15,491 bases of DNA, from contig JBEPZV010000053.1 in NCBI GenBank assembly GCA_041640655.1, positions 1-15,491 on the forward strand, given 5' to 3'. Under the pieces are notes generated by a model. It worked only from the letters and a program-made list of their open reading frames with translations. It did not search any database and was not told the DNA's origin. Source of the stretch: a bacterium. Lineage in GTDB: Bacteria; Acidobacteriota; Blastocatellia; HR10. Positions 1 to 15,491 of this stretch are shown here, one piece after another. How positions within the stretch are numbered: position 1 is the stretch's first letter; each line of letters begins with the position of its first letter. Both the position numbers and the translations under genes were made by a program.

Positions 1-66
1 GTCCACCCGACCTTCGTCCATCGCGCGACGGACGGCAGGAGATCGAGGGAGGAGCGGGGGCGTCAT
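1..66 (-). CDS. 5' end of an unidentified gene running off the left edge (MTPPLLPRSPAVRRAMDEGRVD...)
   Basis: ATG at 66-64 on the minus strand, preceded by GAGGAG and open to the window edge. A sigma-54-type promoter points at it. Too short to assign a function. Confidence 0.6.
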   Translation of the reverse strand, partial: MTPPLLPRSPAVRRAMDEGRVD

Positions 67-131
67 GATTCTCCTCACTCGACCCTTCCCTACCGTCCGT
101 GCTCTCCCCACCTTCCCGACTGATGGGTATT

Positions 132-147
132 TGCAATTTGCGTGCCG
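132..147 (-). promoter_or_regulatory. sigma-54 (RpoN) -24/-12 promoter
   Basis: The minus strand reads CGGCACG-CAAA-TTGCA against consensus TGGCACG-N4-TTGCW, with exact GG-N10-GC spacing. It lies about 65 nt upstream of the ATG at 66. Confidence 0.75.
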
Positions 148-356
148 CAGGAGCCCCGGCGTCGCCCGTGCTTCGCACAAAGACGCAGAGCCCTCACGCA
201 CGAAGAATTACGCGACAATGGCGTGGACGGTCGGGCGCTCATCCCTTCCCCGCTGCTGTGGCGTTCTGGCGCAGGGCGGCAAAACTGCCTCACTTGGATC
301 CGTCGAAAGATGATTCGACTCCCGCCTGCTCCGAGGATGCGTCAAGTGATATGCCC

Positions 357-386
357 TTGAGCATGAGCGCGAGCCTGCGATATGAT
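357..386 (+). promoter_or_regulatory. Putative sigma-70 promoter for the lysE-bpsA-VIT1 operon
   Basis: TTGAGC (357-362), 18-nt spacer, TATGAT (381-386), just upstream of in-frame ATGs at 400 and 406. Confidence 0.45.
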
Positions 387-399
387 TACAACCCGCCGT

Positions 400-1032
400 A
401 TGGGCATGGAATATGTCGCATGGCTGTGCCTCGGATTGGTCCTTGGCCTCATGTCCTCGATGCCCATTGGGCCGATTAACCTGGCCTTCGCGATGATGAT
501 GACTCGTGGACAGGGGCGAGAAAGCTCGGTCCTTGCTGCCACCGTCGCTCTCCTGGATGGCGGCTGCGCTTTCGCCGCCCTCTCGATGATGGCTTCGAGT
601 CGCCTTCCCCTCGCCTCATCTCTCCCCCTCCCCGTAGAGATCGTCGCCTGCGCGCTCGTGATCGGATACGGGGTTTCCCTGCTCATCCCCCGTTCGGCGC
701 TACCATCTCCACCCGCAGTCGCCTGGCGCATGCGAAAGGCGGTGGCCGCAGCGGCCCTCGGCGCTGCTCTCTACGTGCTGAATCCGGCATTCGTCGCCTT
801 CTGGTTCAGCACGGCGCTCACCCTGCGAGCGACAGCTCCGACGATCGCATTGCTGACCCACCGGATATGCTTCGCCATCGGCGCGAGCATGGGGGTCGGA
901 ATGTGGTTTGCTGCACTTCGCGAACTGCTCCGTCATCATCCATTCCCGCTGCCCATCGCACACCGTATGGCGCAAGGGATGGGAATCGTGCTCATCGGAT
1001 TGGGGGCGTATCTCATGGTGAAACGCTTGTGA
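400..1032 (+). CDS. LysE/RhtB-family translocator (membrane exporter)
   Basis: Hydrophobic protein with N-terminal GLVLGLMSSMPIGPINL (LysE PxGP motif), internal LNPAFVAFW (LysE NP motif) and about 6 TM segments. The start is uncertain (382, 400 or 406). Confidence 0.8.
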   Translation: MGMEYVAWLCLGLVLGLMSSMPIGPINLAFAMMMTRGQGRESSVLAATVALLDGGCAFAALSMMASSRLPLASSLPLPVEIVACALVIGYGVSLLIPRSALPSPPAVAWRMRKAVAAAALGAALYVLNPAFVAFWFSTALTLRATAPTIALLTHRICFAIGASMGVGMWFAALRELLRHHPFPLPIAHRMAQGMGIVLIGLGAYLMVKRL

Positions 1033-2066
1033 GCATGGGACGTAAGTGGCGGAACGCCTCCTCGGGATCCTCTGCGGATTCCTCCGATTTATCGAGACGG
1101 GGTGGAAGCGCTTTGACTGCAGCGCCTTCTCCGGCGACGGTCTCGCATCTGCGTCAGTCCCTTCGTTTCGCAGACGAACCAGAGCGCGCTCGCGTGGAGG
1201 CCGCGCTCGAACGAGCCAAGCGCTGGGCGCGAAGGCTGGGCCTGCACTGCGTATTTCATGAAATTCGGACGTTCGTGGAGACGGAGAACGAAGCGCTCCT
1301 GGAAGCGCTCTTCACTCAAGGGGAGACCTTCCTCCAGCGGCCTGAGGAAGAAGCACCCCCATCGGCGTCTGAGGCGCTGCAGGTGGTCGCCTCGCTGCAG
1401 AAGCGCTTGCGCGTGAAGTCGCACGCGTTGCATCAGCTCCCGTGCACGCCCGCCACGACCGTGAAACGCGCCGAGTTGATCCGCTCGTACGCAACGACAG
1501 GGAGTCGCATCCTCTGCCTCGGCGACGACGACTTCGTGAGCGTCGCGTTGGCTCTGCTGCTTCCGAACGAGATCACCGCCCTTGATCTCGATCCCGAAGT
1601 CCTCGAATTGATCACAGCAGCGGCGCACGAGCGACAGCTTCGCATCACCTGTCGGCGCGTGGACCTTCGAGGCCCTCTCCCGGAGGACTTAAAAGAAGCC
1701 TATGATATCGTGATCACCGACCCGATCTACGCCGTGCCGGACATGGTGCTCTTCCTCTCGGCCGCCGAAGCGTGCCTTCGCAAGGCGCCGACCTCATACC
1801 TCTTCACGGGATGCTCGCGCGCGCTGGCGGGTCGCTCGTGGGCGAAGATCGAGGAGTGGGCGGCGGCCCACGGACTCACCCTCACGGCTTTTTTCCCGGG
1901 TTTCAACGCGTACCCGAAGACCAGGCGCCTCCGCTTCTTCCTGAATCTGGCCGAGCGCCTTCTCCTGCGCTCGCCTCTTTCGCGCGCGTGCGTTGACCTG
2001 CCGTATCTGTATTCCGATTACGCCGTCTTTCGCTTCCACGGGGAACCCTTCACACCGAGCCCGTGA
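1029..2066 (+). CDS. bpsA: BpsA-like protein (N4-bis(aminopropyl)spermidine synthase / DUF43 family, SAM-fold aminopropyltransferase)
   Basis: The ordered motifs HQLPCTPATTVKRA, ILCLGDDDFVSVALAL, ALDLD, VDLRGPLPE, YDIVITDP and GFNAY parallel Thermococcales BpsA (DQxxxTPETTVAR, LGDDDLTS, LDID, DLRxPLP, FDTFITDP, NFNEY). A GTG at 1029 overlaps the lysE stop (GTGA); the alternative start is ATG 1035. The ORF-track extension to 867 overlaps lysE and is unlikely. Confidence 0.75.
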   Translation: MSMGRKWRNASSGSSADSSDLSRRGGSALTAAPSPATVSHLRQSLRFADEPERARVEAALERAKRWARRLGLHCVFHEIRTFVETENEALLEALFTQGETFLQRPEEEAPPSASEALQVVASLQKRLRVKSHALHQLPCTPATTVKRAELIRSYATTGSRILCLGDDDFVSVALALLLPNEITALDLDPEVLELITAAAHERQLRITCRRVDLRGPLPEDLKEAYDIVITDPIYAVPDMVLFLSAAEACLRKAPTSYLFTGCSRALAGRSWAKIEEWAAAHGLTLTAFFPGFNAYPKTRRLRFFLNLAERLLLRSPLSRACVDLPYLYSDYAVFRFHGEPFTPSP

Positions 2067-2096
2067 TCCGTTGAGACCATCAGGAGGAGATCCGCG

Positions 2097-2792
2097 ATGC
2101 CCACGATCCCTCATATGGAGCGACACTTCCGCGGAGCACAGACGATTCGCGACATCGTCATCGGCATGTCCGACGGACTCACAGTCCCCTTCGCCCTGGC
2201 GGCTGGGCTCTCGGGCGTCGGCACCTCGACGAGCATCATCGTCACGGCCGGTCTGGCCGAGATCGCCGCCGGCGCCATCGCCATGGGACTTGGCGGGTAT
2301 CTGGCCGCGAAGACGGAGCTCGAACACTACGTGGCCGAACGCATGCGCGAGCAGCGGGAGACCGAGAGAATCCCCGAAGAGGAAGCCGAAGAGGTCGCTC
2401 AGATCTTCCGCCACTACGGGCTCGCCGAGGAGCAGATCGCGCCGCTGGTCGCCGCGATCCGCTCCGACCCTGAACGCTGGGTGGACTTCATGATGCGCTT
2501 CGAGCTGGGACTGGAAGCGCCCGACCCTGTGCGCGCGCGAAGGAGTGCATTCACGATCGGGTTCTCCTATATCGCCGGCGGGCTCATTCCTCTCTTTCCG
2601 TATATGCTTCTTGAACACGTCCTCACGGCGCTCGGCCTCTCGGTTCTCATCACGCCGCTGGCGCTCTTTCTCTTCGGATATATCAAGGGGCGGCTGACGG
2701 GAATCCGACCGTGGCGCAGCGCCCTTCAGACTCTGTCCATCGGTGGACTCGCCGCGACGGCCGCCTTCCTGATCGCGCGCGCGATCGGATAA
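2097..2792 (+). CDS. VIT1/CCC1 family Fe2+/Mn2+ transporter
   Basis: RDIVIGMSDGLTVPFALAAG, GLAEIAAGAIAMGLGGYLA, Glu-rich cytosolic segment, FMMRFELG and GGLIPLFPY. Strong RBS AGGAGGAG at 2082-2089. Confidence 0.95.
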   Translation: MPTIPHMERHFRGAQTIRDIVIGMSDGLTVPFALAAGLSGVGTSTSIIVTAGLAEIAAGAIAMGLGGYLAAKTELEHYVAERMREQRETERIPEEEAEEVAQIFRHYGLAEEQIAPLVAAIRSDPERWVDFMMRFELGLEAPDPVRARRSAFTIGFSYIAGGLIPLFPYMLLEHVLTALGLSVLITPLALFLFGYIKGRLTGIRPWRSALQTLSIGGLAATAAFLIARAIG

Positions 2793-2806
2793 CAGGGCGC
2801 GATCCG

Positions 2807-3232
2807 TCACTCACGGCGGCGCTCGATGATTCGCTCCAAATGCTCGATCAAGACCAGGAGTGCCTCGATCTCCGGATCCAACGTCTGCTTCAATTGAGGA
2901 GCGACCTCCCCATATCCCCTCAGCTTGCTCGCGCGACAATCCGAGAGCGTGGCCCAGAAGTGCGAGAAGTATCCGCGCAAGAGACTCCGCACATCCCTCC
3001 GATGCGGTTCCAGATGAAAGGCCTCGCGAAGACGGCGCAGCCGATGCCGAATCTGCACGATCGTCGCCCGAATTCGGGATTCCTCCTCAGGCGTGAGATC
3101 ACTCGTCAGCTCGAACATCTCGCCCCGCGGGAGATCGGCGGAGAGATAATTCCGCTCCACCTCCAAGAGGGCGCGATCGAGAAGCCCGAGGCTCACTTCC
3201 AGGCGCCGTCGCTGGTGCTCATTGAGGGCCAT
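2807..3232 (-). CDS. Conserved-type helical hypothetical protein (LNEHQRRRL...KLRGYGEV), resembling the N-terminal domain of some bacterial dynamin-like proteins
   Basis: 141 aa amphipathic helical ORF with an AGGAGG RBS, overlapping the upstream HEAT gene by 14 nt. The family resemblance is from recall and was not searched. Confidence 0.75.
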   Translation of the reverse strand: MALNEHQRRRLEVSLGLLDRALLEVERNYLSADLPRGEMFELTSDLTPEEESRIRATIVQIRHRLRRLREAFHLEPHRRDVRSLLRGYFSHFWATLSDCRASKLRGYGEVAPQLKQTLDPEIEALLVLIEHLERIIERRRE

Positions 3233-3626
3233 GGGCGTTTCCCTCCTCTTGCGGAAACTGCGCGAGCGCTCGTTCCGCCGCCCGCCTCACGCGCAACGCC
3301 CCCTGCGTCACACAGCGGGTCAGAAACGGCCGCGCGCGCGTGTCCCCGATCTCTCCGAGGGCTTCCACCACCGATTCGATCACGTATGGGTCTGCAGTCC
3401 GCTCTCCCAGGTCCAGCAGCGCGGGAACAGCCTCACGAGCTTTCAATCGGCCCAAAATCCAGGCGGCGCGCCTCACCGTCTGAGATTCCGGATGGCGCAA
3501 CGCCGAAATGAGCTTCTCCACATAGCGCGCCGAGCGCGAGTACCGCGCGATATCCATCCCACAGCTCGGACAGACGCGAAGCCGCGCGTCTACCTCCCGC
3601 CAGCACCCCGGGCAGAAGAAGACCAT
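3219..3626 (-). CDS. Zinc-ribbon + HEAT/PBS-lyase repeat protein
   Basis: Starts MVFFCPGCW...CPSCG (two CxxC), followed by HEAT repeats (VRRAAWILGRL, AVPALL, VVEALGEIGD, VRRAAERAL). The ATG at 3626 follows GAGGAGG. The ORF-track start at 3677 lies inside the terminator. Confidence 0.85.
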   Translation of the reverse strand: MVFFCPGCWREVDARLRVCPSCGMDIARYSRSARYVEKLISALRHPESQTVRRAAWILGRLKAREAVPALLDLGERTADPYVIESVVEALGEIGDTRARPFLTRCVTQGALRVRRAAERALAQFPQEEGNAHGPQ

Positions 3627-3659
3627 CTCTTCCTCCTCCCCCAGCCTCGCCAGGACACT

Positions 3660-3700
3660 AAAACAGAAGACTCCCACTTGGAACGGCCCAGGTAGGAGTC
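3660..3700 (-). terminator. Intrinsic terminator forming the riboswitch expression platform
   Basis: Minus strand GACTCCTAC-C-TGG-gccgtt-CCA-A-GTGGGAGTC followed by TTCTGTTTT. The 5' arm is the 3' end of the aptamer. Confidence 0.85.
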
Positions 3701-3747
3701 ATCAGCCCCGAATCCCTTCGAGGCGGTTCCCGGCGGACTCCATCGCC
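3692..3747 (-). ncRNA. Fluoride riboswitch (crcB motif) aptamer
   Basis: Minus strand GGCGATGGAGTCCGCC-GGGAACC-GCCTCGAAGGGATTCGGGGC-TGATGACTCCTAC. P1 is GGCG/CGCC, the pseudoknot is GGAGTC/GACTCC, P2 is GCCTCGAA/TTCGGGGC, and the conserved GATG and TGATG...CTAC nucleotides are present. Confidence 0.95.
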
Positions 3748-3756
3748 AAAGCGGAA

Positions 3757-3762
3757 ATTATA
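3757..3762 (-). promoter_or_regulatory. -10 box of the riboswitch-led transcript
   Basis: Perfect TATAAT on the minus strand 9 nt upstream of the aptamer's first G. The -35 match is weak. Confidence 0.7.
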
Positions 3763-4352
3763 CTCTGTGTCTCTCTGGGGGAGAAACCGTCTTTTGAGCA
3801 CCAGGCCGAGCTCGTCGCATGACAGAAGGCGACGGCTGGCGAACTTGCTCGTGGTAGAGGAGTGTGATACATTATCGTACGTGCTGAATCTGCGGATCGG
3901 TCGAAGGCTCGTCCTTCTCGCGGCGATCAGCGCGACCCTGTATTGTGCTCGCTCTTTCCTCTCGCCAAATGGGGTACTCATCGCGCCCCCGGCGATAGGA
4001 CCTGCCTTCGCTGATCGAACGAGCGAACATGCGTTCTCCCCATGGTCGCCCTTTGAGGGGGATCAGCTCGGCCCTCTTCCTAAGGCGAACGATCTCGCCA
4101 CTGGCCCCCACCGAACAGCGGCCATCCACGGTACAGCGCATCTTGCGTTCGTCACTCCTTTTCTGAAGCTTCGGGCTGGGAAAGAGAGTCCCCGAAGTTC
4201 GTGCTGGCGCCTACTCACTCAAGACCTCAGTGAGAGAAGCCCTCCCATGGTTCTTCTTTGACCCCGGTCACATACTCCCAGTGCATCGGTGACACTTCAG
4301 AGCGGGAGGGGAAGATCTCTCCTCCTGTCACGATCGGAGTGGGAGGGCATGT

Positions 4353-5423
4353 ATGGAAGGCGCTCGACTCTTTGAGCCGCTGGAATCGGAATCACTGGCG
4401 ATCCGACTCCTCCGAGCGATCGGAGAGAGTTGGCGAGAGATTCGAGAAGATCCCACGGGCTTTCTCAAGACCCTCTTCGGCATCGAAGAAGAACCGCTCT
4501 GGAAGAGACTTCGGCGCGGCGCGCGCGACCACTGGAGGGAATTCCGCGCGGACCCGAGAGGTTACTTCCGCTTCCTGCTCAGTATGGGCGAGCCACGGGA
4601 GAGAAGGTGGCGCGTCCTCCTCGTGAGCAGCCTCCTGTATGTGGTGGTGATCCTCGCTCTCCTCGCCTTCGAGCGAGCGAGATTCGCCACCCCCCCACCG
4701 GCAGCTTCGATCATCGCCAAGGAATCCATCACACTGATCGAACCGTTGCCTCCGCCGCCCCTCTATGCGCCACAGCGAAAGGAACGAGCGGGAGGTGGAG
4801 GGGGAGGGGGAAGAAAGGAGCCTCATCCGCCTTCATTCGGGAGGCTTCCAAAAGCCGAATTACGTCCCCCCATTGTGGCCCCGAGTCCCCATCTCCCTGA
4901 GATCAGACAGCCCTCTCTCCCCGTCCTCCCCACCATCATGGCGCAGCCCGAGCTTCTCCCGAAACTCGACCTCAGTCTCCCCTTAGGAGACCCAACGAGC
5001 CGCTCCTCTATCCCCTCATCGGGGCCGGGGACCGGAGGCGGTATAGGGACAGGTTCTGGAGGCGGCGTTGGTCCTGGCCAAGGGGTTGGCTATGGCCCCG
5101 GAGAAGGTTGGAATACGGGCGGTGGAGCACCCCGGATCGGGGGAGGAGACCTTGCCAGTCGTCCCGTCATCACGTTCAAACCCCGACCAGAATGGACGGA
5201 AGAAGCGCGTCGCAATCGAATCGAAGGGACCGTGGTCCTGAGCGCCACCTTCGGGGCGGATGGGAGGATCAAGCATGTCCGCATCCTCCGCGGCTTAGGA
5301 TATGGCTTGGATGAGAAGGCCATCGAGGCCGCTTTGAAAATTCGATTCATCCCAGCGCGGGATGCCCGCGGGAATCCGATCGATTGGCGAGGCGTGATCT
5401 ACGTCGAATTCCATCTCCTGTGA
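4353..5423 (+). CDS. TonB-family energy transducer protein
   Basis: One TM helix, Pro- and Gly-rich linker (GGGGGG, GPGTGGGIGTGSGGG) and C-terminal TonB_C domain (KPRPEWTEEARRNRIEGTVVL...GLGYGLDEKAIEAALKIRFIPA). RBS GGAGGG. Confidence 0.92.
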   Translation: MEGARLFEPLESESLAIRLLRAIGESWREIREDPTGFLKTLFGIEEEPLWKRLRRGARDHWREFRADPRGYFRFLLSMGEPRERRWRVLLVSSLLYVVVILALLAFERARFATPPPAASIIAKESITLIEPLPPPPLYAPQRKERAGGGGGGGRKEPHPPSFGRLPKAELRPPIVAPSPHLPEIRQPSLPVLPTIMAQPELLPKLDLSLPLGDPTSRSSIPSSGPGTGGGIGTGSGGGVGPGQGVGYGPGEGWNTGGGAPRIGGGDLASRPVITFKPRPEWTEEARRNRIEGTVVLSATFGADGRIKHVRILRGLGYGLDEKAIEAALKIRFIPARDARGNPIDWRGVIYVEFHLL

Positions 5424-5430
5424 GGAATCT

Positions 5431-5628
5431 ATGTCTGAAATGGGGTCTCGACAACGCATGAGTTTTTGGGGCGTCCTCTCCATATTCACCTTGGGCGGGG
5501 TCATCTATGTCCTCATCGAACGGGGGTATTTCCTTCTCCTCTATGCTCTGGCGACCGGCGCCCTCTGCCTCTTCCTGATCGTCGTCGCCTTCGACATCGG
5601 CTTGGACCGTGCGGGACGCGAGGAGTGA
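5431..5628 (+). CDS. Small two-TM membrane protein, unknown function
   Basis: 65 aa with two hydrophobic helices and GAGGA upstream. It fills the gap between tonB (7 nt) and the APC gene (33 nt). Confidence 0.65.
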   Translation: MSEMGSRQRMSFWGVLSIFTLGGVIYVLIERGYFLLLYALATGALCLFLIVVAFDIGLDRAGREE

Positions 5629-5661
5629 GCAAGAGAAGCATTCCTTCAGGAGTAGGATGCC

Positions 5662-7194
5662 ATGAGCGAAATCTCCACAGCACCTCAACGCCCGCGGCTT
5701 CGACGCGAAGTCACGATTTGGGGCTCCTTCTGCTGGGGATATGCCGATGTCGGAGCGGACGTCTACGTCGCGCTCGGATTGGTGATGGCCGCTGCTCACG
5801 GCGGTACCCCACTGGCATTCGCAATCGCCGGGGTCGTCTATGTCCTGGTGGGATTGACGTACACGGAGCTGGCTTCGACTTACCCATCGGCGGGCGGAGG
5901 CCAGTACTTCACGTTGCGAGGATTGGGAGATTTCTGGGGTCTCATCGCCGGCGCCGCCCTGATGCTCGATTACACCGTTGATGTCGCCCTCTTCGCCATG
6001 GCTTCGGCCGGTTACATCAACTTCTTCTTCCCCCCGGTTCGCGAATTCGCGATGACCCTAGGGCCCTTCCACAACGTCAACCTCATCTGGCTCATAGAGA
6101 CGCTCGGTCTGATCATCTTTCTGACCATCCTCAATATCAAGGGGATCCGCGAGTCTGCTCTCTTCAACGAGATCCTCGGAGCTCTGGACCTGGTCATGGA
6201 GACCACCATCATCGTGATCGGCTTCGCTTTCGCCTGGAAGCCCGAACACTTCCTGCATCAGTGGAGGACCGAGTTCCCAGGGTGGCATGATCTGCTCTAC
6301 GGCACTTCGATCGCGGTGATCTCTTACGTCGGCCTCGAATCCGTCTCCCAGGCGGCTCAGGAAACGGTCCGTCCAGGTACGGTGATTCCGCGGACGTCGC
6401 TCACTCTGGTCGGAGTGGTCTTGCTCTTCGCCTTGGCCTTCCCCACAGTCTCGCTGGGGATCGTCTCATGGCAAGAGATCGCGGCCCGCGAGGGGGATCC
6501 GGTCGCCCTGCTGGCGAGCAAACTCCCCCTCGTCGGGTTCCTCGCTGGTCCGATCGCTGCCGTGTTGGCGGCAACCATCGTGCTTATCTCCGCCAACACG
6601 GGCGTCATGGGAGCCAGTCGCTTGGCGTTCAATATGGCGGAGCTCGGTCTGGTGAGCGAGCGACTCGCCCACGTACATCCCCGGTTTCATACCCCCGTTC
6701 GCGCCATCGTCCTGTTCTCGGGAATTGCCGCCGTGGAAGCGATCTTCGCTTTCCTCAGCGGCCACCGGGCGATGGAGACGATGGCGAATATGTATGCCTT
6801 CGGTGCTATGCTGGCTTACTTGCTGAGTGTCATCGCCTTGCTCGCTTTACGGATCAAAGAGCCCCACGTGCCCCGCCCGTATTTCGTTCCCCTCAACGTG
6901 CGCTTCCGAGATCGTAGCATCCCAATCCTGGGAGTAGTGGGCATCCTGGGCACAGCACTGATGGTCGTCCTCGTGCTGTGGACGCACGAGCTCGCGCGCG
7001 TCGCCGGCCCACTTTGGGTGATGGGGTGGATCTGCTACTACGCAATCTACAGACGCCGGATGGGGAGACCGATTTGGCGGAGCCTCCCCCGGGATTGGGA
7101 GACACAGCATCTCCTCCTCCTAGAGGAGGCCGAGGAGTGGGACTCTCTGGAATCGTTCAGGAATGAACTGAAGCGGAGGGCGAAGAGGAGATGA
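5662..7194 (+). CDS. APC superfamily permease (amino acid/polyamine/cation)
   Basis: About 12 TM segments; YTELASTYPSAGGGQYF, SYVGLES, ASRLAFNMA and HPRFHTPVRAI are typical APC motifs. RBS AGGAG. Confidence 0.92.
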   Translation: MSEISTAPQRPRLRREVTIWGSFCWGYADVGADVYVALGLVMAAAHGGTPLAFAIAGVVYVLVGLTYTELASTYPSAGGGQYFTLRGLGDFWGLIAGAALMLDYTVDVALFAMASAGYINFFFPPVREFAMTLGPFHNVNLIWLIETLGLIIFLTILNIKGIRESALFNEILGALDLVMETTIIVIGFAFAWKPEHFLHQWRTEFPGWHDLLYGTSIAVISYVGLESVSQAAQETVRPGTVIPRTSLTLVGVVLLFALAFPTVSLGIVSWQEIAAREGDPVALLASKLPLVGFLAGPIAAVLAATIVLISANTGVMGASRLAFNMAELGLVSERLAHVHPRFHTPVRAIVLFSGIAAVEAIFAFLSGHRAMETMANMYAFGAMLAYLLSVIALLALRIKEPHVPRPYFVPLNVRFRDRSIPILGVVGILGTALMVVLVLWTHELARVAGPLWVMGWICYYAIYRRRMGRPIWRSLPRDWETQHLLLLEEAEEWDSLESFRNELKRRAKRR

Positions 7195-7224
7195 ACGCCT
7201 CCCCCTTCAGGAATGTCCTCCGCC

Positions 7225-9576
7225 TCACGCGCGCCGTTGGCCCGATAAAGCGGCCGGCGCCTCCTGCTGCAACATCTCCGCCAGCGATCCGCGCTTGCTG
7301 AAGAGAATGGCCAGGCTGAGCAACAGCGCGCACACGAGCACGATCCCTCCGCGCACCGTCCACGAGAGTGGGCGCGTGGCGAACGGCGCCACCAGAATGC
7401 TCACCAGATTCATGACCTTGATCAATGGATTGAGCGAAGGCCCGGCTGTATCCTTAAACGGATCGCCGACCGTATCGCCGATCACCGCCGCCTTATGCTC
7501 CTCGCTCCCCTTCCCACCGAGGAATCCATCCTCGATCTTCTTCTTCGCGTTATCCCACGTCGCTCCCGTGTTCGCCATGAAGACGGCCAGCAGTTGCCCG
7601 GTCAGGATCGCTCCGGCCAGAAATCCCCCGAGCGCTCCCGGCCCTAACGCGAAAGCGACAAGCAGTGGAGAGAAGATACCGAGGATGCCCGGTCCGAGCA
7701 ATTCCTTTTGCGCCGTCGCCGTCACGATCTCCACGCAGCGACCGTAGTCGGGTCGCTCCTTCCCCTCCAGGATGCCCGGCTTCTCGCGAAATTGACGGCG
7801 CACTTCCTCGACGACCTGATGCGCCGCTCGCCCGACCGCCTTCAGCGCGAACGCGGAGAAGAGGAAGGGCACCGCGCCGCCGATCAGGAGGCCGGCGAAG
7901 ACCTCTGGCAGATTCACCTGAATCCCTCGCTCGAAGAGGCGCGCCTCATCAATGAACGACCGGAACAGAGAGACCGCAGCGATCACTGCCGTCGCGATGG
8001 CCAAGCCCTTGGTGAGCGCCTTCGTCGTATTGCCGATGGCATCCAGCCAAGCCAGGTTCCGTCCCACCTCCGGAGCGGCCTTGATGCCGGACATTTCAAA
8101 GATGCCCTGCGCATTATCGGTGATCGGCCCGTACGTATCCATCGCCAGGACGAATCCCGTCGTCGTCAGCAACCCCAATCCCGCGAGCGCGATCCCATAG
8201 GCAGCCAGCGCCGGACTCCCGGCGAAGATCACCAGCGAGGCCACGATCGTGCCGACGATCGCCAGAATCGCCCAGACCGTGCTCTCCAATCCCGCTCCCA
8301 TGCCCGTCAGGAGCATCGTCGCCGCACCCGTTCGCGTGGAGATCGCCGTCTCCGTCGCTGCCGGCTTATCCGGATGCGTGAACAAATTGGTGATCCACAG
8401 CGTCACAAGCGCCAACCCGATCCCCATGCTCGTAGCCAAGAAGAAGCGGAAATCCGGCCGCCCCGTCACCGGATCCACGAGATAGAAGGCATTCAAGAGC
8501 GCGAATCCGAGGACCGAGCTGAGCCCCGCGACCCAATACCCCACCGTGATGGGACGCATCGGATCTTTCACCTGCTCGCTCCGCATCCGCACGCTCCAAA
8601 TGCCGAGTATGGACGAGAAGACCCCCAGGGCGCGCACCAACAAAGGAAACAGGATCAGCTTCAGCGCGAAGGCCGAGGCGTGCGCTCCGTAATACCGCGT
8701 GAACGCCGGATCCAGCAGCGTGGCCGCGGCCAGGATGATAGCGGCCACCAGCGTCACCTCGTAGCTCTCAAAGACATCGGCGGCCATCCCCGCGCAATCC
8801 CCCACGTTGTCACCGACATTATCCGCGATGACGGCCGCATTGCGAGGATCATCCTCAGGGATCCCCTTCTCGACCTTCCCAATCAGGTCCGCCCCGACGT
8901 CCGCCGCCTTCGTGTAGATGCCACCGCCGATGCGCATGAAGAGCGCTGCCAGACTCCCCCCGAAGCCAAATCCCACCAGCACCTTCATCGCGTCTTCCTG
9001 AAAGAGCAGGAAGATGAGCGTCGCGCCCAGCAGTCCGAAGCCCACCGTGAACATGCCCGAGACCGCGCCTGCGCGAAACGCCAGCTCAAACGCCCGAGGG
9101 AAGCTCGACCGCGCTAGATTCGCCGTGCGCACGTTGCCCTTGACGGCCAACCACATCCCCACATATCCGGCGCCATAGGAGGCCATCACCCCCATCAGAA
9201 AGGCGACGGCGATGCCCGCCGGGAATCTCCAGTCCGGATAAACCCGCTGGTAGACGATGAAGAGCAAGAGGGTGATCGCCAGCACGAACCAGATCATCGT
9301 GCGAAATTGCCGCCCCAAATACGCCATCGCGCCTTCCTCAATCGCCCGCGCGACGCGAACCATCGCCTCCGGCCCCGCCTCCTGTCGCGTCACCCGCCGA
9401 ACCAACAGCGCGCCATAGAGGAGCGCGAGCAGGGCGGATGCCAGAACCGCCCACAGGATCATCCACTCCGTGCGCCCCAGCGTCGGCAACGTGATCTCAC
9501 GTTCGGACTGCGCCCATACATCCCCGCTCACGAAACACGCCAGGAGAAGAGAAAGCGCCAAGTGCCTCACCCTCAT
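7225..9576 (-). CDS. hppA: Membrane-integral pyrophosphatase (ion-pumping PPase), K+-independent type
   Basis: GGGIYTKAADVGADLIGKVE, EDDPRN, DNVGDNVGD, YGPITDNAQGI, GNTTKA, WDNAKK and GDTVGDPFKD are all present. The preferred start is ATG 9576 after GGAGGG (alternative GTG 9615). Confidence 0.97.
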   Translation of the reverse strand: MRVRHLALSLLLACFVSGDVWAQSEREITLPTLGRTEWMILWAVLASALLALLYGALLVRRVTRQEAGPEAMVRVARAIEEGAMAYLGRQFRTMIWFVLAITLLLFIVYQRVYPDWRFPAGIAVAFLMGVMASYGAGYVGMWLAVKGNVRTANLARSSFPRAFELAFRAGAVSGMFTVGFGLLGATLIFLLFQEDAMKVLVGFGFGGSLAALFMRIGGGIYTKAADVGADLIGKVEKGIPEDDPRNAAVIADNVGDNVGDCAGMAADVFESYEVTLVAAIILAAATLLDPAFTRYYGAHASAFALKLILFPLLVRALGVFSSILGIWSVRMRSEQVKDPMRPITVGYWVAGLSSVLGFALLNAFYLVDPVTGRPDFRFFLATSMGIGLALVTLWITNLFTHPDKPAATETAISTRTGAATMLLTGMGAGLESTVWAILAIVGTIVASLVIFAGSPALAAYGIALAGLGLLTTTGFVLAMDTYGPITDNAQGIFEMSGIKAAPEVGRNLAWLDAIGNTTKALTKGLAIATAVIAAVSLFRSFIDEARLFERGIQVNLPEVFAGLLIGGAVPFLFSAFALKAVGRAAHQVVEEVRRQFREKPGILEGKERPDYGRCVEIVTATAQKELLGPGILGIFSPLLVAFALGPGALGGFLAGAILTGQLLAVFMANTGATWDNAKKKIEDGFLGGKGSEEHKAAVIGDTVGDPFKDTAGPSLNPLIKVMNLVSILVAPFATRPLSWTVRGGIVLVCALLLSLAILFSKRGSLAEMLQQEAPAALSGQRRA

Positions 9577-9666
9577 ATTACCCTCCATGCCGTTTGCGGT
9601 TCTCGTCTCCTCCACCTCCCGGAGAGGTCGAGGCGTGACGCCCCCCCTTCACGCCCGTTCCCGATC

Positions 9667-10368
9667 TCAATTCGCATATGGGATCGGATCCTCGATCCCC
9701 GCTTCGGCGAAACCGCGCCGTCGAATCTGACAGCTATCACACCGCCCGCAGGCGAGCATCTCCCCCTCTCGCGCTACGGGATCATAGCAACTCCATGTGA
9801 GGCGATAGTCCACACCCAATTCTCGCCCCCGCCGAATGATCTCGGCCTTGGTCATCGAGAGGAGCGGCGCGTGAATGCGAAATCGCGACTGTCCCGAGAC
9901 GCCCGCGCGCGTCGCCAGATTGGCCATCTGCTCGAACGCCCGCAAATATTCGGGCCGACAATCCGGATAGCCGCTGTAATCGAGGACGTTCGCCCCGAAG
10001 AAAATGTCCTCGGCGCCGAGCACCTCGGCCCACGCGAGCGCGAAGGCGAGGAAGATCGTGTTCCGCCCCGGGACGTAGGTGATCGGAATCTCGGCGCCGA
10101 TCTCCTCCGGTGTTCGATCCTTCGGCACGGCGATGCTCTCGTCGGTGAGCGCCGAACCGCCGATCTCCCGCAGGTCAATGGCGATCACCAGATGTCGGGC
10201 GACACCGAAAGCCGCGGCGATGGCCCGCGCGCGCTCGAGCTCGATCTCATGCCGCTGACCGTACCGGAAGGAGAGGGCGTAGACCTCGTACCCCTCGGCG
10301 CGAGCGATCGCGAGCGTCGTCGTCGAATCTATCCCTCCACTCAACAGGACGACGGCTCTCTCGGCCAT
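9667..10368 (-). CDS. queC: 7-cyano-7-deazaguanine (preQ0) synthase
   Basis: [37 protein letters not shown] and CGRCDSC. Confidence 0.97.
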
Positions 10369-10374
10369 ACCCCC

Positions 10375-11343
10375 TCACGCGAATTCGCGGGCTCCGAGAA
10401 GGGACGAGGAGGCCTCCGATCGCGCCACCTCCGGGGGGAGGGCGAACTGCACGCCCTCCTCCTCGGCGGGCATCTCTTCGATGCTCTCGGCTCCGAGCGC
10501 GCGAAGATACGCGATCACGCGCGCGACCAGCTCCTCAGGCGCCGACGCGCCAGCCGTCACGCCCACGGATGTCACCCCCTCCAGCCACGCCGGCTCGATC
10601 TCCGCCTCATCGTTGATCACATACGCGGGAACGCCCGCCGCTTGAGCGACCTCCCGCAACCGCTGCGAATTCGAGCTGTTCTGCGAGCCGATCACGAGGA
10701 TGAGATCCACGTCGCGCGCCAACGCCTTCACCGCATTCTGCCGATTCTGCGTGGCGTAGCAGATGTCCTCCTTGGGCGGCGATTCCAACCGCGGGAACCG
10801 ACGTCGCAACGCCTCGACGATATGCGCCGTATCGTCCACGCTGAGCGTCGTCTGCGTGAGATAGACGACCCGATCGGGGTGCTCCACCTGCAACCGCTCC
10901 ACATCGGCGACGGAGCTGACCAGATGCATGGGCGCCTCGCCCATCGTCCCCTCGACCTCCTCATGCCCGGGATGCCCGATGAGCACGATCGAATACCCCT
11001 CGCGGGCGAATCGCACAGCTTCCACATGCACCTTCGTCACCAGCGGGCACGTCGCGTCAATGACTCGCAGCCGACGCTGCGCCGCCTCCGCCCGAACGTG
11101 AGGGGAGACGCCGTGCGCGCTGAAGATGCACGTCGCGCCCTCGGGCACATCGGCGATCCGATCCACGAAGATAACCCCGCGACGGCGCAAGCGTTCGACG
11201 ATATGTCGGTTGTGCACGATCTCGTGGAAGACGTAGATGGGCGGAGGAAAGAGCGCGAGCGCGCGCTCGACAATATCAATGGCGCGCACGACGCCGGCGC
11301 AGAACCCCCGCGGTTTCGCCAGAACGACTCGACGAATCGCCAT
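10375..11343 (-). CDS. ispH: 4-hydroxy-3-methylbut-2-enyl diphosphate reductase
   Basis: PRGFCAGV, IVHN, SAHG, DATCPLVTKVH, HEEV, QTTLS, ICYATQNRQ, SSNS and TAGASAP. RBS spacing favours ATG 11343 over 11349. Confidence 0.97.
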   Translation of the reverse strand: MAIRRVVLAKPRGFCAGVVRAIDIVERALALFPPPIYVFHEIVHNRHIVERLRRRGVIFVDRIADVPEGATCIFSAHGVSPHVRAEAAQRRLRVIDATCPLVTKVHVEAVRFAREGYSIVLIGHPGHEEVEGTMGEAPMHLVSSVADVERLQVEHPDRVVYLTQTTLSVDDTAHIVEALRRRFPRLESPPKEDICYATQNRQNAVKALARDVDLILVIGSQNSSNSQRLREVAQAAGVPAYVINDEAEIEPAWLEGVTSVGVTAGASAPEELVARVIAYLRALGAESIEEMPAEEEGVQFALPPEVARSEASSSLLGAREFA

Positions 11344-11372
11344 ACCCATTCCCTCCTCGCTGGGGGAGGCCT

Positions 11373-12350
11373 TTAAGCGTATCGCTCACAGGGCGAGACG
11401 TCAACACGGAGCAGAGCGCGAACGCGCGGATGCGTGAAGTACCGGCGCGCGCGCGCGATGTCCTGCTCGATCTGAGCGCGCAAGGCATCCACCGTCTCGA
11501 ATCGGCGCTCCGACCGCAACCGCCGCAGGAATCGCAGCGCCACCGACGCGCCGAGCGCATCCCCGCGCCAATCCAACAAATGCGTCTCAACGCTCATTGC
11601 CCCTCCCTCGTCGAAGGTCGGTCGGTGTCCGACGTTGGTCACTCCTGGATGCCACTGCTCCCCAAGACGCACGAGGGTGACATAGACGCCGGTCGCCGGA
11701 AGAATCGGGTTCTCTGACTGGAGATTCGCCGTCGGGACGAGCCGTTCGCGACCGCGACCGGATCCCGCGATGATGCGCCCGCGAACCTCATACGGACGCC
11801 CCAGCAGACGCCGCGCCAGATTCACACACCCCGTCCGCAACAGGCGCCGAATCGTCGTCGCGCGCACACGATGGCCGCGCAGCGTCACCTCCTCGATCTC
11901 CACCGCCCGCCGTCCCAATCGCGCGGCGACCTCCACGGCCAGATCAATCCGCCCTTGCCGATCGCGCCCGAAGGCCGCCCCCTTCCCCAGGTACAGCTCG
12001 CGCGCGTCCAAGCGCCCGAACACGTACGTGAGCAGAAAATCCTCGGCCGAGACGGCCGCCAGCTCGCGAGTGAAGCACATGAGAATGACCTGCTCCACCC
12101 CCAGTTCGGCGAACGCTTCCAAACGTTGCTCCAGTGTCTGAAGCAGCGGAGGCGCCGTCTCCGGATGCAAGACCTGTCGCGGATGCGGATCGAAAGTGAT
12201 GACCGTCGGCGTCGCCCCCAACGCTCGCGCCCGCTCGACGACCGTGCGCAGAATGCGCTGATGGCCGAGGTGAACCCCATCGAAGACGCCGAACGTCACC
12301 ACCGTGGGGCACCGAATGGTCTCCTGCCACAGATCGCGAACGATCTTCAT
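11373..12350 (-). CDS. ribF: Bifunctional riboflavin kinase / FAD synthetase
   Basis: FDGVHLGH, TFDPHP, LLGRPY, PTANL, GVY, NVGHRPTF, ETHLLD and LRSERRF. The start is probably ATG 12350 (alternative GTG 12374). Confidence 0.96.
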   Translation of the reverse strand: MKIVRDLWQETIRCPTVVTFGVFDGVHLGHQRILRTVVERARALGATPTVITFDPHPRQVLHPETAPPLLQTLEQRLEAFAELGVEQVILMCFTRELAAVSAEDFLLTYVFGRLDARELYLGKGAAFGRDRQGRIDLAVEVAARLGRRAVEIEEVTLRGHRVRATTIRRLLRTGCVNLARRLLGRPYEVRGRIIAGSGRGRERLVPTANLQSENPILPATGVYVTLVRLGEQWHPGVTNVGHRPTFDEGGAMSVETHLLDWRGDALGASVALRFLRRLRSERRFETVDALRAQIEQDIARARRYFTHPRVRALLRVDVSPCERYA

Positions 12351-12501
12351 CGAACCCTGACGCCGCCTCGCCACCGAAGGGAGAAGAACGCCCGTTCCAC
12401 ATGTGCTCCAATGGGACGTGAGATCTTCATCGGCGAGGGATCACCCCCCGTCCCCACCGGCAGCCGCCCAGTGCTCAAGAGGAGCGCGCACGTCCCCCTC
12501 C

Positions 12502-12936
12502 TCAAGCCCCCGCCTCCCGCTCCCTCGGCTGCCGATTCGCTAACTGAACGAAGCGCATGCGCAACTGCGTGAGCGCTCCATCGAACAGTTCCTCCTCCTC
12601 GCGGGAGAGGTTGCCGCGCGTCTTCTCCCGCAACGCCCCCAGCCAATCAATCATCTGCTTGGCGGCCGATAAATCCACCACCCGCTTCCCCAAAGCCGGG
12701 TGTTCCATCATCCCCAGATTGACTTCCGCCGAGGAGATGAGATTCACGAGCAGCTCGACAAAGAGCGGCGACGTCTCGATCGAAGGGGGCGTCGGTGCGG
12801 GCTCTTCGACCTTCGGCATCTCCGCGGGTGCGCTCACCTGCTCCCGCTCCACAATCTCCACCCGCAATGTCCCATCAGGGTTGAAGAGCCGGCGATCCGT
12901 CACCTTGAACGTGACCTCACCCTCCTTGTTGCTCAT
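12502..12936 (-). CDS. DUF1844 domain protein
   Basis: FKVTDRR N-terminus and C-terminal DLSAAKQMIDWLGALREKTRGNLSREEEELF signature. AGGAG/GAGG RBS. Confidence 0.88.
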   Translation of the reverse strand: MSNKEGEVTFKVTDRRLFNPDGTLRVEIVEREQVSAPAEMPKVEEPAPTPPSIETSPLFVELLVNLISSAEVNLGMMEHPALGKRVVDLSAAKQMIDWLGALREKTRGNLSREEEELFDGALTQLRMRFVQLANRQPREREAGA

Positions 12937-12995
12937 GCGCCCTCACTCCTCACCGTTTCCTCATCCTGCGCACTGCGCGCGATGTCGAGGCATTC

Positions 12996-13024
12996 ATCTT
13001 ATCACTCCCCCTTTTCGACAGCAA
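12996..13024 (-). promoter_or_regulatory. sigma-70 promoter with extended -10 for the DUF1844-ribF-ispH-queC run
   Basis: Minus strand TTGCTG, 17-nt spacer ending TGA, then TAAGAT (TGnTAAGAT), about 60 nt upstream of the DUF1844 ATG. Confidence 0.65.
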
Positions 13025-13309
13025 GAGAGGCCCGCCCCACCCTGCAGGAGAATGCCGGGGACCGCCCCCCAACGCGCATCTCCGCCGCTGCAATTGACCG
13101 CTTCGGCAACAAGATCGCACGCGACAATCGCTCGACTTCCCGCAGACCGGATGGGATCCGCTCCCCACCGGCACGCCGATCGCAAAAATGAGCCGGGAAC
13201 GCCTGAGGTCTCCGATGCGACGCCTATCGAGGAAGACGATCCGGATGGGAACACCCCGGCGCCACGTCAGTGAAACGACTCCGCCGACTCCTGATACACG
13301 GCTTCGTCA

Positions 13310-15490: not shown

Positions 15491-15491
15491 C

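Follow-up and report, generated by a model that had tools for sequence, protein, structure and literature searches.

To our knowledge, microbial fluoride resistance has been explained almost entirely by export (Fluc/CrcB, CLC-F, FEX) and by extra copies of sensitive enzymes. What, then, does a fluoride riboswitch control when two small soluble proteins are encoded behind it? This question is raised by a 15,491-nt stretch of DNA from an Acidobacteriota bacterium (Blastocatellia; HR10; GenBank assembly GCA_041640655.1, contig JBEPZV010000053.1, positions 1 to 15,491, hereafter the window), in which a riboswitch of the crcB motif precedes two overlapping open reading frames, ORF1 and ORF2, on the minus strand. 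An earlier note on this DNA had proposed either that the two proteins perform a fluoride-linked function of their own, perhaps as a scaffold, chaperone or enzyme-protecting complex, or that they are the remnant of a larger operon. Our comparison with other genomes supports the view that the two proposals are compatible and not alternatives. The unit appears to be a fluoride-stress gene cluster of wide distribution, pared down to its core, and the recurrence of both protein families in fluoride-riboswitch clusters of Acidobacteriota, Nitrospirota and Planctomycetota is strongly supported by the genomic comparisons. We consider it very likely that the unit is a real, conserved module induced by fluoride.

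The riboswitch and its two genes

The only family-level RNA match in the window is the fluoride riboswitch aptamer (RF01734), at 3686..3756 on the minus strand. Its score of 53.5 bits (E 1.2e-12) exceeds the gathering score of 34, and the match spans model positions 1-64 of 64, so that the covariance model bears out the aptamer previously placed at 3747-3692, a span that lies inside the match 3756-3686. No other fluoride riboswitch was found in the 3.13-Mb assembly, which is 89.8% complete. The P1 loop GGAGU is complementary to ACUCC in the 3' tail (a predicted pseudoknot, read from the sequence), and this same ACUCC lies within the 5' arm of an intrinsic terminator that would serve as expression platform (3660..3700, minus strand). 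In the minimum free energy fold of 3765-3620, the terminator hairpin has a 9-bp core stem in which GACUCCUAC (3700-3692) pairs with GUGGGAGUC (3677-3669), and is followed by the U-tract UUCUGUUUU (3668-3660); a simple terminator scan missed it because its loop measures 14 nt. The sharing of one strand by the pseudoknot and the terminator, already claimed in the earlier note, implies that aptamer and terminator are mutually exclusive, which as predicted here is the usual layout of an ON switch. As described for this riboswitch family in Weinberg 2010 (PMC2864571) and in a review (PMC7266159), the aptamer is stabilised by its ligand, the terminator can then not form and expression goes up. With a terminator that competes for the pseudoknot strand, bound fluoride should hence keep the polymerase from stopping early, and transcription should continue into ORF1 and ORF2.

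The leader is conserved beyond the window. In an alignment of nine leaders (seven from the window's family and two from a neighbouring family), P1 and P3 are preserved with compensatory changes, as is the terminator, and five pairs in all show such changes. The terminator appears in the RNAalifold consensus as a hairpin of 13 pairs that leads into a stretch of U; one of these pairs has changed in a compensatory manner, and several changes are one-sided. The -10 promoter box TATAAT (3757..3762, minus strand), read in the sequence, starts about 6 nt before the aptamer match, and a TAnnnT box occupies the same position in the leaders of seven relatives; a sigma-70 scan of 2700-4300 returned no -35/-10 pair, which leaves TATAAT as a sequence match only. 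The leader of genome G007 (L008 998-1112) has no strong terminator, only a 5-bp ACUCC/GGGGU pairing before the U run (fold z-score 0.61), and may use a different expression platform. As a short leader from a thermophile with a clean terminator platform, the window's element is also a possible fluoride-inducible expression switch.

A Shine-Dalgarno-like purine-rich stretch, GGGAGGAGGA (3631..3640, minus strand, read in the sequence), lies 4 nt before the start codon of ORF1. This first gene (minus strand, ATG 3626 to TGA 3219) encodes a 135-aa protein with a putative Zn ribbon (C5, C8, C19, C22) and PBS-lyase-type HEAT repeats, and the second, ORF2 (minus strand, ATG 3232 to TGA 2807), a 141-aa all-helical protein of an unnamed family. 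The genes overlap by 14 nt (ORF1 end 3219, ORF2 start 3232), which suggests translational coupling. Another 14 nt separate the ORF2 stop from that of a convergent VIT1-family gene (2097..2792, plus strand; PF01988, 247 bits), which lies outside the unit and forms its boundary. The minus-strand unit is hence complete as first described, from the TATAAT, aptamer, terminator and ribosome-binding site to the two overlapping genes that stop at VIT1.

Both proteins do lack a transmembrane helix, no 19-residue segment exceeding a Kyte-Doolittle mean of 1.6 in either of them (maximum 0.64 for ORF1 and 0.85 for ORF2, with 2.34 for VIT1). Membership in the CrcB/Fluc family finds no support, ORF1 and ORF2 having neither a PF02537 match nor a hydrophobic segment, and no Pfam match to DUF190 (PF02641) or to Dynamin_N was obtained for either. 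The exporter reported missing from the window is missing more widely, since neither CrcB nor CLC was found in the window or in the 89.8%-complete genome.

Conservation in the family and in three phyla

ORF2 is present in all eight genomes of the window's GTDB family, namely seven of genus g1 (the window's own included) and one of genus g2. Each of the eight has exactly one RF01734 match above the gathering score (52.4-57.8 bits), on the same strand as ORF2 and upstream of it. The order in the seven g1 genomes is riboswitch, ORF1, ORF2 and convergent VIT1, whereas in g2 the riboswitch stands directly before ORF2 (about 90 nt from aptamer end to start codon) and a TetR-family gene follows. The earlier note had named both genes as the cargo of the riboswitch: both do lie downstream of it in the window, but the constant cargo is ORF2 and not the Zn-ribbon/HEAT gene. 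That ORF2 is the cargo kept by evolution is strongly supported by these genomes. In genome G004 (L004), the C-terminal third of the ORF1 homolog is in a different frame from its orthologs, by a frameshift or an assembly error, and ORF2 is intact.

The usual partners of such a riboswitch were sought in the same eight genomes, in assemblies that are 73-98% complete, on which all statements of absence rest. CrcB (PF02537) was found in 0/8, five of them at least 94% complete, by a search that was positive in 11 of 14 control genomes, and DUF190 was likewise found in 0/8. For the window's own genome, six CrcB and three DUF190 proteins of relatives served as tblastn queries, with no match below E 0.2; no match of a CrcB hidden Markov model (HMM) to its 27,687 six-frame ORFs fell below E 0.4, and no CLC was found. 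Voltage_CLC occurs in two of the eight genomes, as long-form frames of 601-642 aa away from the riboswitch, assigned only to the Voltage_CLC level. A tblastn search of the own genome with five cluster-type dynamin-like proteins gave nothing; one Dynamin_N match there (46.8 bits, 361-aa frame) was set aside as a likely generic GTPase, the same search being positive in 12 of 14 control genomes.

One transporter does recur in the family. A major facilitator superfamily (MFS) homolog without an adjoining riboswitch, 43-45% identical to the MFS protein of the riboswitch clusters of Acidobacteriota and Nitrospirota described below, occurs in seven of the eight genomes (own genome C4:9988-11121, minus strand), and on this similarity it is a candidate fluoride exporter for the CrcB-less lineage. 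Its neighbours, inspected by eye, are HAD-like hydrolase, MurQ-like and SagB-like genes and give no further hint.

Profile searches detected ORF2-like genes in 15/401 sampled genomes of the class and 28/401 of the phylum (the own genome counted in both). For the 27 Acidobacteriota genomes outside the window's family, the best match was analysed with about 5 kb of flanking sequence in either direction; five weak partial matches (G519, G547, G508, G461 and G679; E 7e-6 to 8e-4) were omitted, and second ORF2-like copies in G035, G073 and G540 were not treated as separate loci. In 22 of the 27 loci, a fluoride riboswitch that reaches the gathering score is present within about 5 kb; in 19 it is upstream and on the same strand, and the same-strand copy of L085 falls just under the threshold at 33.2 bits. 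Five of these genomes contain 2-3 riboswitches each in 3.5-6.2 Mb, a density at which a random 10-kb stretch would by arithmetic hold one with a chance of ~1%.

Neighbouring genes were mapped using HMMs built from the loci themselves, the key members (CRCB and DUF190) being confirmed by Pfam; in these high-GC loci, ORF calls are HMM matches on six-frame translations and not gene predictions. The most frequent neighbour is a dynamin-like GTPase (18/27), followed by crcB and DUF190 (14/27 each), a cluster-type MFS gene (5/27, strong matches) and an ORF1 homolog (5/27). Gene order varies: riboswitch, ORF2, crcB and DUF190 in L082 and L083; riboswitch, crcB, DUF190 and ORF2 in L089; riboswitch, crcB, three DUF190 copies, dynamin and ORF2 in L086; riboswitch, (soluble) pyrophosphatase and ORF2 in L092; and, in L095, riboswitch, MFS, two ORF2 copies, ORF1, crcB and DUF190, with a dynamin gene further on. 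Three tandem DUF190 genes or domains stand between crcB and the dynamin-like gene in L085 (2075-3193), L086 (7205-8252) and L103 (1619-2654). In L090 and L091 (~4780-5600), two fluoride riboswitches point away from each other with the ORF2-like gene between them, and in L032/L088 (G206) a 285-aa Usp-DUF190 fusion protein is encoded upstream of an ORF2-like gene that has an internal TGA and is possibly a pseudogene.

A second set comprised 17 loci from Nitrospirota/Thermodesulfovibrionia and Planctomycetota (Brocadia and Kuenenia included), retrieved with a subgroup alignment. Ten of them contain RF01734 matches at or above the threshold; all 16 such matches share the strand of the ORF2-like gene, and in nine loci a match lies upstream of it. 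Among the seven loci without a riboswitch, several reach a contig end no more than 1.5 kb upstream. ORF1 homologs are encoded in ten of the 17, and in L064 the ORF1 homolog overlaps the start of the ORF2-like gene, as in the window. Neither Pfam nor the custom HMM map found CrcB in these 17 loci, where the Pfam neighbours are a 276-aa HEAT protein, 600-aa Dynamin_N proteins, STAND-type ATPases, DUF6062, ABC ATPase, MFS_1, PHO4, Usp, P-II, formate/nitrite transporters (FNT), enolase, a MutS_V protein and a Na+/H+ exchanger (Na_H_Exchanger). Some loci of the anammox-type Planctomycetota (L070 3943-5209, L071 1693-3483, L076 2814-3152 and 4899-6741) have riboswitch-headed operons with P-II and one or two FNT genes; this FNT/P-II pair occupies the place of the crcB/DUF190 pair of Acidobacteria, for which it might be a functional stand-in. 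In the nitrospirotal L073 (1100-2896), a 65.4-bit fluoride riboswitch directly precedes the gene of a 530-aa MutS domain-V protein, which matches the mutS association in Weinberg 2010 (PMC2864571), whose account of the motif's neighbours also names K+/Cl- transport and formate hydrogen lyase genes.

These loci speak for both halves of the original proposal. A fluoride-linked function gains from the association of riboswitch and ORF2 in 8/8 family genomes, 22/27 Acidobacteriota loci and 10/17 Nitrospirota/Planctomycetota loci, and homologs do lie with fluoride riboswitches, crcB and DUF190. A larger operon type, of which the window would hold a remnant, is equally visible in relatives, whose loci contain crcB, DUF190, MFS and dynamin-like genes, all but MFS being missing here. 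The possibility that a rearrangement merely placed an orphaned switch before unrelated genes, which the lack of an exporter or known target in the operon might suggest, is contradicted by the comparative data, the same protein families standing behind fluoride riboswitches in three phyla, and we give it next to no weight.

The unit could also be decaying, a riboswitch-ORF1-ORF2 leftover that lost its use when crcB, DUF190 and the GTPase disappeared. These members of the cluster are indeed absent from all eight family genomes, ORF1 has been lost in one genus and its C-terminal frame has changed in G004. The riboswitch is nevertheless intact in 8/8 genomes at 52-58 bits, the terminator is preserved with compensatory change, and the pairwise ratio of nonsynonymous to synonymous substitution (dN/dS, NG86) is 0.08-0.23 for ORF2 at dS up to ~3. 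The ratio for ORF1 is 0.14-0.30, also with dS up to ~3; both genes are under purifying selection. Decay is, in our judgement, very unlikely.

The two protein families and their possible role

ORF1 matches HEAT_2 (PF13646, 61.5 bits against a cut-off of 27.7) and HEAT_PBS (PF03130, 44.5 against 20.9). At its N-terminus it has a CxxC..CxxC pattern whose four cysteines (C5, C8, C19 and C22) never vary among 16 homologs drawn from three phyla; these homologs also share an invariant or nearly invariant ALxHPExxTVxRAxxILG core. Pfam zinc-ribbon models score 13-19 bits on ORF1 itself, below cut-offs of 27-29, and Zn_Ribbon_1 scores 24.6-25.6 bits on the homologs against a cut-off of 25. Identity to a Thermodesulfovibrionia homolog amounts to 40.6%.

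Neither Pfam nor NCBIfam assigns ORF2 to a family. When 12 close homologs were combined into a profile and searched against 1.84 billion cluster representatives, 1233 proteins came up at E<=1e-3, of which 339 also passed E<=1e-10; almost all of them are 130-160 aa long. ORF2, the seed of the family profile, displays the family motif, which is LRGYGxVxPxLxxxLDP-like. All source names in the family read 'hypothetical protein'; the taxa include Blastocatellia, Nitrospirae, Candidatus Brocadia and Planctomycetes, and the close homologs are named 'Blastocatellia bacterium' and 'bacterium HR08'. In an 80-sequence alignment, G108 is the sole invariant column, and L3, Q7, L15, L74, W93, L104 and L118 are at least 90% conserved. 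By its sequence relationships, this is a large, unnamed family linked to fluoride riboswitches.

The AlphaFold2 model of ORF2 from a deep alignment is all-helical (pLDDT 96.1, pTM 0.77), with helices at 5-29, 48-71, 81-97, 101-107 and 112-138. With either ORF2 model, Foldseek retrieved nothing from the PDB at E<=1e-3, and a PDB sequence search with the 80-sequence profile gave nothing below E 0.06. In the ESM Atlas, the clusters closest to ORF2 hold nameless proteins of 139-140 aa from Acidobacteriota and Chloroflexota (0.92-0.93), with DUF3907 at only 0.84. Two weak resemblances were rejected. GvpK (PF05121) is matched by 10 of the 80 family members over a single helix of about 35 residues, always at 19 bits or less against a cut-off of 25; with partial profile coverage, no gas-vesicle genes nearby and no match for ORF2 itself, this is noise or at most a remote helix similarity. 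Matches of the family to MscS_porin are below the cut-off or coiled-coil-like.

Domain fusions connect the families. Two database proteins, P0129 (322 aa) and P0194 (276 aa), unite a Zn ribbon, HEAT_2 and an ORF2-like C-terminal domain. Seven Acidobacteriota genomes (L096, L101, L102, L103, L106, L107 and L108) encode an ORF2-like N-terminal domain followed by Dynamin_N (70-90 bits), in one open frame in 7/7 frames tested, and the riboswitch is directly upstream in five of these seven loci. Longer fused forms of ORF2 were not found at E<=1e-5 in a set of 5.8 billion proteins, a negative that weighs little, fusions being known by other routes. ORF2 as a diverged piece of dynamin was rejected, hhalign against the dynamin-like proteins of the cluster giving a probability of 1%. 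Beyond what the window alone could show, the strongest protein partner of the ORF1/ORF2 pair in other genomes is the dynamin-like GTPase.

We infer a complex of ORF1 and ORF2 from the fusions, the adjacency in both gene orders and the overlap of the genes, and direct binding between the two proteins seems fairly probable. Fluoride would bind the aptamer and block the terminator, and both genes would be transcribed. The Zn-ribbon/HEAT protein and the helical bundle, translationally coupled, would form a soluble complex, acting as an adaptor or accessory of fluoride-stress machinery and not as a transporter. In relatives, this complex may work with the dynamin-like membrane GTPase, beside CrcB, DUF190 or an MFS transporter. 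The hot-spring Blastocatellia lineage would have lost exporter, DUF190 and GTPase alike and kept only the riboswitch-ORF1-ORF2 core, which presumably acts on a partner encoded elsewhere, the conserved MFS homolog being one candidate. Taken as a whole, this reading of the unit, a fluoride-inducible two-gene operon that encodes an adaptor and is the stripped-down core of a larger cluster, is in our view probably the best explanation. The specific role, that of an adaptor of membrane-associated machinery, is put forward tentatively, as one possibility.

Several observations weigh against this reading. A nearby riboswitch is missing from five of the 27 Acidobacteriota loci: L087, L094, L098 and L104 show none when the threshold is relaxed to E<=0.05, and L097 ends at a contig edge. 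In L090 and L091, the ORF2-like gene is not downstream but upstream of the riboswitch heading the dynamin-like gene. Related genomes do not count as independent samples, and our counts, drawn from sampled related genomes, are given without a p-value. ORF1 is absent from the sister genus g2 and hence dispensable there. With a 488-aa query, the cluster-type dynamin-like GTPase yielded only two 20-bit matches among the eight family genomes; as the lineage has no such GTPase, a GTPase-adaptor role cannot be the whole story here. The conserved columns of the ORF2 family give no catalytic or ion-binding signature. VIA-align comparison of the ORF2 model reached a best Z of 7.7, over the hairpin 79-141 (ESCRT-I, CdvA, CHMP4B and many unrelated hairpins), and this was dismissed as a generic helical-hairpin arrangement.

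A partner encoded elsewhere could also be addressed through a signal relay, in which the ORF1-ORF2 pair is a regulator that switches on unlinked tolerance genes or proteins (e.g. the constitutive MFS homolog) and replaces direct control of an exporter. The genome's sole riboswitch does head an operon without an effector, seven of the eight family genomes contain a riboswitch-less homolog (43-45%) of the riboswitch-linked MFS protein, a TetR-family gene follows ORF2 in genus g2, and Zn ribbons and HEAT repeats are typical interaction modules. Yet neither protein has a DNA-binding or kinase-type domain, and such a relay would be redundant in the many relatives where the pair shares an operon with an exporter. 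We hold it to be unlikely.

The retention of riboswitch and ORF2 despite CrcB in 0/8, DUF190 in 0/8 and CLC in only 2/8 genomes is also what direct protection would predict, ORF2 (with or without ORF1) binding fluoride or a metal-fluoride, or shielding a fluoride-sensitive Mg-dependent enzyme, and conferring tolerance independent of an exporter. In riboswitch operons, ORF2-like genes stand by genes of fluoride-sensitive enzymes (the pyrophosphatase of L092 and the adjacent enolase of L069). The window DNA, moreover, occurs in hot-spring metagenome runs, one of which, unflagged as the assembly source, carries 0.97 of the sampled words, and hot-spring waters are often fluoride-rich. Direct protection has to contend with the absence of a polar pocket signature, glycine or hydrophobic residues filling nearly all columns conserved across the family, and with the lack of similarity to any solved ion-binding fold; we think it improbable.

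A broader proposal, on which we would not insist and which we regard as rather doubtful, is that ORF2 and its Zn-ribbon/HEAT partner form a soluble complex that protects from fluoride by itself, the set of ORF2-like protein, Zn-ribbon/HEAT protein and dynamin-like GTPase being a second arm of the fluoride response. If true, such an exporter-independent defence would account for a hot-spring family in which every genome retains just this module behind its one fluoride riboswitch and none shows CrcB or DUF190, a long-form CLC being present in two of the eight, and several phyla would possess a second arm of the bacterial fluoride response alongside ion export.

A riboswitch of known ligand labels as fluoride-responsive two protein families without a function, one of them nameless and comprising >1000 sequence clusters, and the comparative data tie both families to dynamin-like GTPases in three phyla. 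Proteins filed as hypothetical would thereby gain a defined inducer and a simple testable phenotype. If a new tolerance mechanism or exporter is to be sought, a lineage devoid of CrcB and DUF190, with a CLC in only two of its eight genomes, suggests itself, and the MFS homolog is a candidate.

The surrounding genes and known systems

Upstream of the unit, a gap of about 590 nt (3763-4352) separates the riboswitch promoter from a TonB_C gene (4353-5423); the ORFs it contains, 3767-4261 (plus strand) and 3872-4141 (minus strand), belong to no Pfam family. A membrane H+-pyrophosphatase gene (7225-9615, minus strand; PF03030, 809 bits) lies 3.5 kb from the riboswitch and outside its control; pyrophosphatases are fluoride-sensitive. 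On the other side of the unit, at 867-2066 (plus strand), a gene encodes the C-terminal domain of a branched-chain polyamine synthase (BpsA_C, 95 bits), a type of enzyme typical of thermophiles, which fits a hot-spring source of the window DNA.

Full-text literature searches found no link of the fluoride riboswitch with dynamin or HEAT repeats, nor of crcB with dynamin-like proteins. The ORF2/ORF1 cluster was not found described in the full texts searched, and an earlier listing of these families among unnamed riboswitch neighbours, for instance in Weinberg 2010 or Baker 2012, is possible. Literature retrieved for fluoride riboswitches together with Acidobacteria was unrelated by title and abstract.

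Four known systems invite comparison. PBS-lyase-type HEAT proteins (CpcE/CpcF, NblB) have the same repeat type as ORF1, which however reaches only 18-31 bits on the corresponding models against NCBIfam cut-offs of 200-330, is much shorter, has a putative N-terminal Zn ribbon and stands in a non-phototroph context. DUF190 (PF02641) is a P-II-like soluble protein usually encoded beside crcB. Like ORF2, it is a small soluble protein of fluoride operons, and it shares operons with ORF2-like genes in 14/27 Acidobacteriota loci; the two are not homologous, ORF2 being all-helical and without a Pfam match, and DUF190 is absent from the window's lineage.

Classical fluoride-riboswitch operons, with crcB/Fluc or eriC-F/CLC-F as cargo, were reportedly also the subject of work by Baker in 2012. 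With these operons (Weinberg 2010, PMC2864571) the window shares the aptamer family, the ON logic of terminator competition and the 5'-leader position. Its cargo of two soluble proteins, however, includes no channel, no antiporter and no enzyme known to be sensitive to fluoride.

The GTPases of the cluster can be compared with the bacterial dynamin-like proteins IniA, DynA, LeoA and Nostoc BDLP. ORF2 itself is no diverged part of a dynamin-like protein and the window's genome has no such GTPase, but ORF2-like domains are fused to the N-terminus of these Dynamin_N GTPases in seven genomes and encoded adjacent to them in many more, often behind a fluoride riboswitch.

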